DNA from: Eledone cirrhosa
Lineage: Eukaryota
Length of the DNA: 64,000 nt
Direction of reading: 5' to 3'
Assembly: GCA_964016885.1 (NCBI GenBank)
Contig: OZ024741.1
Location: 274,970,001-275,034,000, forward strand
The first letter of the stretch is position 1; every line of letters starts with the position of its first letter. Made by a program: the position numbers and the translations under genes. Below the pieces are notes generated by a model. The model was not told the DNA's origin. It ran no database searches and saw only the letters and a program-made list of their open reading frames with translations. This document shows, piece by piece, positions 40,846 through 41,184 of the stretch.

Positions 40846-40956
40846 AGTATTAACAATTGTTTCATTGATAAGGTGAGTCTAAAGGCCGCTGATCACTCGA
40901 AGTTGCATCACTCGACCTTAAATACAGTGTGCGTCTCTGATCAAATCATCGGAATA

Positions 40957-40958
<2 letters not shown>
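40846..40958 (-). ncRNA. Type-I hammerhead motif, CCGATGA core, long stem II
   Basis: Minus strand AGTATT-CCGATGA-TTTGAT...ATCAAT-GAA-ACAATTGT-T-AATACT. Confidence 0.78.
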
Positions 40959-41006
<48 letters not shown>

Positions 41007-41067
41007 GTATTAAGTTAACAATGAAAATAAAACCAACAAAGTGAAGTTACTTTACCTATTCATATCA

Positions 41068-41184
41068 TTGTTTTACGATCGTTTCGTAGGGTCGATCTTA
41101 TTGACATATTGTCTGATCTATAGCAGTTATATGACTGTATACTCTCATATATAGGTTCGATCAGACCGGCTTCTTCGGAAACAA
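41068..41184 (-). ncRNA. Type-I hammerhead motif, CCGAAGA core, long stem II
   Basis: Minus strand TTGTTT-CCGAAGA-AGCCGGTCTGATC...GATCGACCCTAC-GAA-ACGATCGT-A-AAACAA. Confidence 0.72.

Follow-up and report, generated by a model that had tools for sequence, protein, structure and literature searches.

Two adjacent minus-strand hammerhead motifs in the window, the 64,000-nucleotide stretch of Eledone cirrhosa DNA analysed here, lie in the terminal repeats at the 3' ends of Hydra-type Penelope-like elements that are dead, truncated at the 5' end and part of a very large radiation. Both motifs (M1 and M2) carry C at position 4 of the hammerhead core, where the U of CUGANGA is normally conserved, together with a stem II of more than 80 nucleotides. 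A sequence-only reading of the window had coupled the two features as one structural subclass, whereas we find that core position 4 and stem II length are inherited family traits that vary independently between lineages. A6 of the core is normally conserved as well, and in the original viroid study U4A and U4G reportedly fail. A CCGA core has been reported to cleave in viroid-like RNAs (PMC9608096) and a U4C variant to have considerably lower activity in vitro (PMC3088659). In saturation mutagenesis of a type III hammerhead, all single and double mutants of the CUGA region are reported to have low activity, except for the C3/G8 swap (PMC9901934).

Results

The hammerheads of the window and their parts are as follows.

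40846..40958, minus strand: M1 type I hammerhead; core CCGATGA at 40952-40946, triplet GUU
40945-40864, minus strand: M1 stem II, 82 nt
40860-40853, minus strand: M1 palindromic stem III, ACAATTGT; predicted cut after 40852
40794..40845, minus strand: M1 tail, stopping at (TA)n about 58 nt beyond the predicted cut
41067..41185, minus strand: M2 type I hammerhead; core CCGAAGA at 41178-41172, triplet GUA
41171-41086, minus strand: M2 stem II, 86 nt here and 93 nt in most family copies
41082-41075, minus strand: M2 palindrome, ACGATCGT; predicted cut after 41074
41004..41066, minus strand: M2 tail, stopping about 70 nt beyond the predicted cut, inside a (TA)n tract
41186..41250, plus strand: inverted piece of M2's own distal tail, attached at the truncated 5' end of M2
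18181..18255, plus strand: D1 hammerhead; core CCGACGA, 3-bp stem I, palindrome ACGCGCGT, triplet GUC
18048..18132, minus strand: true inverted copy of D1; core CCGACGA at 18129, 60-nt stem II
49632..49718, plus strand: D2 hammerhead; core CCGTCGA (C4 and U6), 60-nt stem II
60568..60661, minus strand: E2 hammerhead; core CCGTCGA (C4 and U6) at 60657, 67-nt stem II
16647-16711, minus strand: canonical CTGA hammerhead, 20-45 nt stem II
31069-31139, plus strand: canonical CTGA hammerhead, 20-45 nt stem II
31924-31989, plus strand: canonical CTGA hammerhead, 20-45 nt stem II
43668-43722, minus strand: canonical CTGA hammerhead, 20-45 nt stem II
49111-49184, minus strand: canonical CTGA hammerhead, 20-45 nt stem II
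55905-55965, minus strand: canonical CTGA hammerhead, 20-45 nt stem II

M1 is as first described, with stem I AGTATT/AATACT, core CCGATGA, a palindrome and a stem II of about 80 nt (82 nt measured). The core, palindrome and roughly 80-nt stem II (86 nt) of M2 also held, except that its stem I has 7 bp and not 6. The end of the M1 tail, about 58 nt past the predicted cut, is the most frequent 3' end among copies of its family, and a (TA)n tract separates the M2 tail from M1. The source DNA of the inverted fragment beside M2 lies downstream and in the opposite orientation in three other loci (L033, L034 and L041), and such a fragment at a truncated 5' end is the typical Penelope insertion structure. 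Among the other motifs, D1 (core at 18184) is an internally deleted copy with a stem II of 50 nt against 60 nt in undeleted copies, and D1 and its inverted copy form a fold-back spanning 18020-18283. The motif at 49636, D2, had been read as the mirror of the one at 18184, but both lie on the plus strand and the real inverted copy is the minus-strand one at 18129. The "same change" proposed for this family applies to 18184 (CCGACGA), whereas the CCGTCGA at 49636 carries A6U too. D2 in the window is typical of its own subfamily, with 96% identity to the nearest copy. E2, which has stem I GTGT/ACAC, was absent from the earlier reading. The six canonical hammerheads are of the type of very abundant Hydra-type families.

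Several further features of the window were recorded. A fold-back insertion places an inverted 5' piece of the E2 copy at 60665-60900, and a second E-family fold-back insertion, a copy without the core, lies at 63340-63480. Dispersed 5S rRNA copies, possibly retroposed, sit beside microsatellites at 18488-18605 (plus strand, 66.6 bits) and 30248-30366 (minus strand, 101.6 bits), and a tRNA-like match at 42693-42750 (plus strand, 30.4 bits) is probably the head of a SINE. Decayed LINE copies with zinc-knuckle ORF1, endonuclease and reverse transcriptase (RT) frames occupy about 200-12200; in a window-wide list of open reading frames (ORFs) and repeat search, microsatellites dominate and these LINE remnants are the sole elements shown.

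None of 20 versions of the window generated by a third-order Markov model contained an M1- or M2-type motif, so M1 and M2 are not chance matches. The motifs have stems I, II and III around the junction, GAAA and an NUH triplet, as type I hammerheads do, and depart from the canonical CUGANGA core by C4 in M1, M2 and D1 and by C4 together with U6 in D2 and E2. Rfam hammerhead models gave no match at the gathering score in the window and none at E<=10 in 40700-41400; at the gathering score they also overlooked the canonical U4 hammerheads of the window. In M1, M2 and D1 monomers the hammerhead fold lies 6-8 kcal/mol above the free minimum.

Searches of the 3.0-Gb genome for the M1, M2 and D families returned 1,000-2,200 candidates apiece, 40 of which were scored per family. 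M1 had 2093 candidates and 323 exact matches to a 25-letter family pattern, M2 1056 candidates and 57 exact matches to a 29-letter pattern. With position 4 left open, hand counts gave 84 CCG, 12 CTG, 3 CCA and 1 CGG in the first 100 of the 323 M1 matches, and 42 CCG, 8 CTG and 7 CCA in the 57 M2 matches, making C4 the majority state in the consensus of both families. The near-equal CTG and CCA counts in M2 point to a C4 ancestor, since CpG decay away from C4 predicts such symmetry; M1 shows a modest excess of CTG over CCA. The earlier view that C4 is not decay was thus borne out. The opposite reading, that C4 and U6 arose as dead copies decayed or that the motifs match by chance, could appeal to the truncated, inactive state of the window copies and to some U4 copies within C4 families and scattered C4 within U4 families, which are copy-level mutations. 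It is refuted by the family majority counts, together with the zero controls and the nested subfamilies that share a common core, and we consider it barely credible.

Motifs with a stem II of 60-90 nt number, genome-wide, 1,502 with C4 and 4,168 with U4 (controls 49 and 66). Long-stem motifs with a purine at position 4 gave 269 matches against 188 in the control; since these are barely above control, amplified families use only U or C there. Position 7 (N7) accepts all four bases. Long stems are thus more often U4 than C4, which contradicts the proposed coupling. The U4 figure is overestimated by about 15-20%, given that about 17 of the first 100 listed matches are false (9 come from an unrelated repeat, and 8 are hammerheads whose stem is short and which have a spurious CTGA upstream), and the order of U4 over C4 is unchanged by this. 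Among hammerheads of the same stem III type (GAAAC) with a short stem II of 16-24 nt, there are 12,993 matches (control 1,021), and C4 is present in 85 of the first 100 listed. Evenly spaced samples totalling 600 kb held 24 motifs, of which 19 were U4 short, 4 U4 long, 1 C4 short and 0 C4 long; the reversed control held none. Sister subfamilies with an equally long stem carry either base at position 4.

A tree of the endonuclease from 27 author-chosen genome rows and 5 outside homologs gave 8 changes between C4 and U4, 7 of them forced by well-supported branches, although the labels are single chosen copies subject to CpG decay, and L202 is one insertion, so that 8 may overcount. An earlier tree with 26 genome rows gave 6 changes. 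C4 and U4 are unclustered on the tree (136 of 500 shuffles were as low), whereas long and short stems are clustered, with 3 changes and 0 of 500 shuffles as low. Among the chosen rows, C4 occurs in 14 of the 20 whose stem III is C15.2-G16.2 and in none of the 7 with U15.2-A16.2; the strength of stem III may be the real context for C4.

These results bear directly on the reading of C4 and the long stem II as one coupled subclass, with the inserted domain rescuing an altered core. Its case is that the share of C4 is larger among long-stem matches (1,502 of 5,670) than among those of 10-40 nt (16,986 C4 versus 146,373 U4), and that both traits are missing from 46 outside relatives. That excess, however, comes from clade structure, the abundant U15.2-A16.2 families all being U4. 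The C4 majority among the listed short-stem GAAAC-type matches, the clustering of stem length but not of position 4, and U4 long-stem families that include the youngest, with a near-intact ORF, all count against it. We regard the coupled reading as largely refuted and very unlikely.

The folds of the family stem II regions are rods with internal loops, with z-scores from +1.2 to -6.1 (M1 -1.6, M2 -3.2 and D 0.0). Across 22 subfamily representatives of the M1 clade, pairing holds in 82.6% of cells (34-41% in slid controls), with two-sided changes at 14 of the 26 stem II pairs; in the D/E helix such changes occur at 6 of 10 pairs in the proximal part and at none of 12 in the distal part. All these counts lean towards the structure counted, which the author had named from the same sequences. 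When RNAalifold was used alone, it recovered just 3 pairs of the M1-clade stem II, and for D/E it gave a fold other than the hammerhead. Because it missed these folds, it is with moderate confidence that we describe the long stem II as a probable conserved, covarying rod. The compensatory changes across subfamilies uphold the earlier view of a real conserved domain. The particular covariation cited for family D (GCTTT/ATAGC versus GCCAC/GTGGC) fared less well, as the GCCAC arm at 49643 is partly copy-specific and most listed copies of the D2 subfamily have GCTGC; at the family level, the covariation of that helix stands, through the 6 of 10 pairs above.

Copies of these families are 5'-truncated, often with an inverted piece, and most terminate at (TA)n about 58 (M1), 70 (M2) or 45 (D) nt beyond the predicted cut. 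A second group has 3' ends 150-225 nt past it, and every genomic copy spans the predicted cut site. M1 is linked to an ORF with RT and endonuclease through three loci (L013, L028 and L203), D2 through two (L269 and L270), E2 through two (L447 and L448) and M2 through one (L414), whose bridging DNA is common to other M2 copies; among D1 copies there was no direct ORF link. Remnants of the ORF lie upstream of M1, M2, D2 and E2. The three families called unrelated are distinct yet related, M1, M2 and D2 all being tied to one retroelement ORF type. A tandem pair (L297) considered as a full-length M2 unit was rejected, as it has no ORF inside.

In a young sister family (L201), a 782-aa ORF lies between two hammerheads 3,569 bp apart, and another locus (L426) has an 821-aa open stretch of Hydra-type ORF. 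The near-intact Hydra-type ORFs of young families are at G000:C1:75828598-75830979 (L201:4598-6979) and L426:2128-4590. Because L201 family copies are about 0.8% from the family majority, this family may still be active. The ORFs of L201 and L214 have DKT, CxCX5C, a C-terminal CxxC and CxH; the 782-aa ORF has YRDD as well, and CxCX5C is present also in the M1- and D2-linked ORF remnants. By eye, the L201 and L214 motifs agree with the Hydra clade as Craig et al. describe it (PMC8557442). A Pfam search of the ORF returned no family and a PDB sequence search nothing useful. Hence the putative Hydra assignment relies on motifs compared by eye, the homologs in the trees being unnamed or unclassified. 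Neptune/Nematis, considered at an earlier stage, was replaced by Hydra after comparison with published motif definitions.

By its motifs, the element has a single ORF with RT and, at the C terminus, an endonuclease of GIY-YIG type; it inserts at (TA)n, carries a hammerhead in its terminal repeat, and tandem units are seen. It differs from Hydra elements described as "generally short (under 3 kb)", as its hammerhead-to-hammerhead units measure 3.6 kb (L201), 4.2 kb (L282 and L283) and 4.9 kb (L270). Nor does it resemble non-LTR retrozymes, which are ORF-less short tandem repeats with a hammerhead; copies here are solo or inverted pairs running into ORF remnants. The 782-aa ORF has 301 homologs at E<=1e-20 among 8,000 scored candidates. 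Short U4 hammerheads gave 146,373 matches against 16,705 in the control and were tied to the same ORF type in 9 of 12 stretches fetched. The load of the Hydra-type clade is unusually large in this genome.

Among 78 metagenome loci with related ORFs, 46 have a hammerhead, of which 44 are CTGA and 2 U3-A8. None of the 46 has C4, in a scan that allowed C4 with a one-point penalty, and their stem II is 12-29 nt and never longer. The two metagenome Hydra-type elements with the published U3-A8 core variant are at L331:2102 and L367:1937. In File S2 of Craig et al. 2021, all 26 Hydra rows combine a CTGA core with a short stem II (PMC8557442). Because both traits are absent from the 46 outside loci and these 26 rows, C4 and the long stem II seem, within this sampling, to be particular to the present radiation.

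The CCGTCGA core is a second departure from the canonical sequence. Family D has 63 CCGTCGA, 18 CCGACGA, 17 CTGACGA and 2 CTGTCGA in the first 100 of 1,810 exact matches, and a tighter D2 pattern gave 812 exact matches against 0 in the control. CCGTCGA is the majority core of D2's own, separate subfamily, whose copies form one group with nested sub-lineages, the newest with end branches near 1%. For family E, CCGTCGA is found in 58 and U6 in 65 of the first 100 of 1,139 matches. A tree that leaves out the core positions, and for which 41 of 81 rows served, rejects the view that U6 arose once (p-AU 8e-5). The E family evidently reached the CCGTCGA core independently of D2, and transfer of a short patch between the D and E families is possible. 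No other non-A6 family stands out among the matches listed. A recurrent CTGGTGA start, with G at position 6, precedes GAAAC at G000:C1:13661103, 14920569, 23365848, 24683264 and 28801245, and may represent a further core variant or else belong to a longer stem II.

CCGUCGA can pair with a YGGC-G12 strand in both families, an observation made post hoc. Between the slipped and hammerhead registers the median gap amounts to +0.6 kcal/mol for D2, against +10.4 and +7.2 for its sisters, and to -2.4 kcal/mol for E2, against +3.0 and +3.5. In the full motif the probability of slipped pairing is about 0.6 in E2 yet 0 in D2, and for that reason the predicted shutdown of cleavage by pairing of the core with the G12 strand is a lead only. 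Another idea, that U6 does away with an A6-U16.1 mispairing and so liberates the core, held only by half: the pair is lost, yet the core is still about 0.6 paired. For comparison, a natural A6C variant is reported to be slow (PMC3088659), and the literature searched held no report of A6U cores.

Discussion

Penelope hammerheads, palindromic stem III and U4C are already known, and the elements described here share much with published systems. Like Hydra-clade hammerheads (PMC8557442), they are type I motifs near the 3' end of an RT and GIY-YIG ORF with DKT and CxCX5C, at (TA)n targets, with an AC...GU stem III and a mismatch at the base of stem II. In contrast to the Hydra elements of that source, stem II here extends to 60-101 nt, many lineages have fixed C4 and two have C4 joined by U6, and tandem units are 3.6-4.9 kb and not under 3 kb. 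Metazoan Penelope hammerheads (PMC4209133) likewise occur by the thousand as solo copies left by truncated elements, and also as pairs on opposite strands; they have a palindromic stem III that implies dimers, a larger-than-usual helix II and family-level core variants. Their helix II is, however, 6-8 bp and their reported core variant U3-A8; the supplementary file searched, one of two, contains no C4 core. Peach latent mosaic viroid and CtaHVd-LR1 also show the change from CUGA to CCGA, in U4C hammerheads reported to retain self-cleavage (PMC9608096; PMC3088659). There it is a minority variant in viroid populations, whereas here C4 is in the majority in genomic families that number thousands of copies, and it has switched more than once. 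Non-LTR retrozymes (PMC7229834) similarly place type I hammerheads, with a stem III of the dimer type, in animal genomes, but are described as ORF-less tandem repeats of about 170-400 nt, where ours are truncated ends of ORF-bearing elements. Genomic families with a C4 majority, A6U cores and a 60-100 nt stem II in Penelope hammerheads were described nowhere in the literature covered, a range that excludes Lunse et al. 2017; the available parts of PMC6155905, PMC3376415, PMC7229834, PMC10085705 and bioRxiv 10.64898/2026.07.22.740005 describe no such variants.

The account that we favour, and think reasonably probable, is that the parent RNAs still cut weakly, as dimers and probably helped by protein, with position 4 and stem II length independent of each other. 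Two hammerheads would exchange the strands of their palindromic stem III to form an 8-bp duplex and cut after GUH, a pairing modelled on published Penelope hammerheads (PMC4209133; PMC6765202), for which the 8-nt palindromes have predicted energies of -6 to -13 kcal/mol. Cutting by the dimer would trim tandem transcripts to unit length, and sister families do contain tandem hammerhead-ORF-hammerhead units. C4 would be a tolerated, probably slower variant. Copying would begin 45-70 nt, sometimes 150-225 nt, beyond the cut site, and because every copy extends past that site the template would be uncut or re-joined RNA. A slow ribozyme would then cost little or even help, and weak selection on cleavage rate would permit the U/C switching at position 4; repeated switching, and no amplified purine family, are what we observe. 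The long stem II, just upstream of the copying starts, would likely be a folding scaffold or a protein handle and not a partner of C4. In D2 and E2, CCGUCGA would weaken cleavage further, core bases 4-8 pairing with the strand that ends in G12. The PAc hammerhead is reported to need protein for cleavage, with reverse transcription starting internally on unprocessed RNA (PMC11167929), and the genomic copies here, which cross the cut site, agree with such an internal start.

A less likely reading, which we nevertheless take seriously, is that cleavage is no longer needed and that the hammerhead fold, with its long stem II, persists as a scaffold that binds protein for retrotransposition, C4 and U6 being drift or selected off-locks. 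PAc hammerhead mutants still insert in vitro (PMC11167929), Naiad elements exist without any hammerheads (bioRxiv 2021.04.23.441226), and the copies that span the cut site fit this reading as well. So do the two successful families that fixed A6U atop C4, the low end-branch lengths of the newest D2 sub-lineage, and a slipped pairing that is roughly isoenergetic only in CCGUCGA families. However, all families examined keep C3, G5, G8, A9, GAAA, NUH and a perfect palindrome, and the most abundant ones retain CUGA. The scaffold reading also sits poorly with purines being excluded from position 4 of amplified families although N7 takes all four bases, and with CCGUCGA being the only non-A6 core to stand out among the matches listed.

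A more specific proposal, which we put forward as a rather unlikely one, is that CCGUCGA evolved twice for pairing with the G12-bearing strand of stem II, giving a two-state hammerhead that is switched by protein, with the 60-100 nt stem II as the protein-binding domain. If this is true, the hammerhead would be off while the RNA serves as template, and the protein that the element itself encodes would turn it on or hold it off. In any case, the convergent CCGUCGA core is a lead worth testing.

The hammerheads of Penelope-like elements cut weakly in vitro, are not required for insertion in the one purified system and do not occur in the Naiad clade. Roughly ten thousand or more motifs of this genome alone escape descriptors that demand CUGANGA together with a short helix II. 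The genome offers a natural allelic series within one clade, with U4, C4 and C4/U6 cores and a stem II of 12-101 nt, in families each amplified to hundreds or thousands of copies. Matched sister subfamilies of this series could reveal whether retrotransposition needs cleavage.
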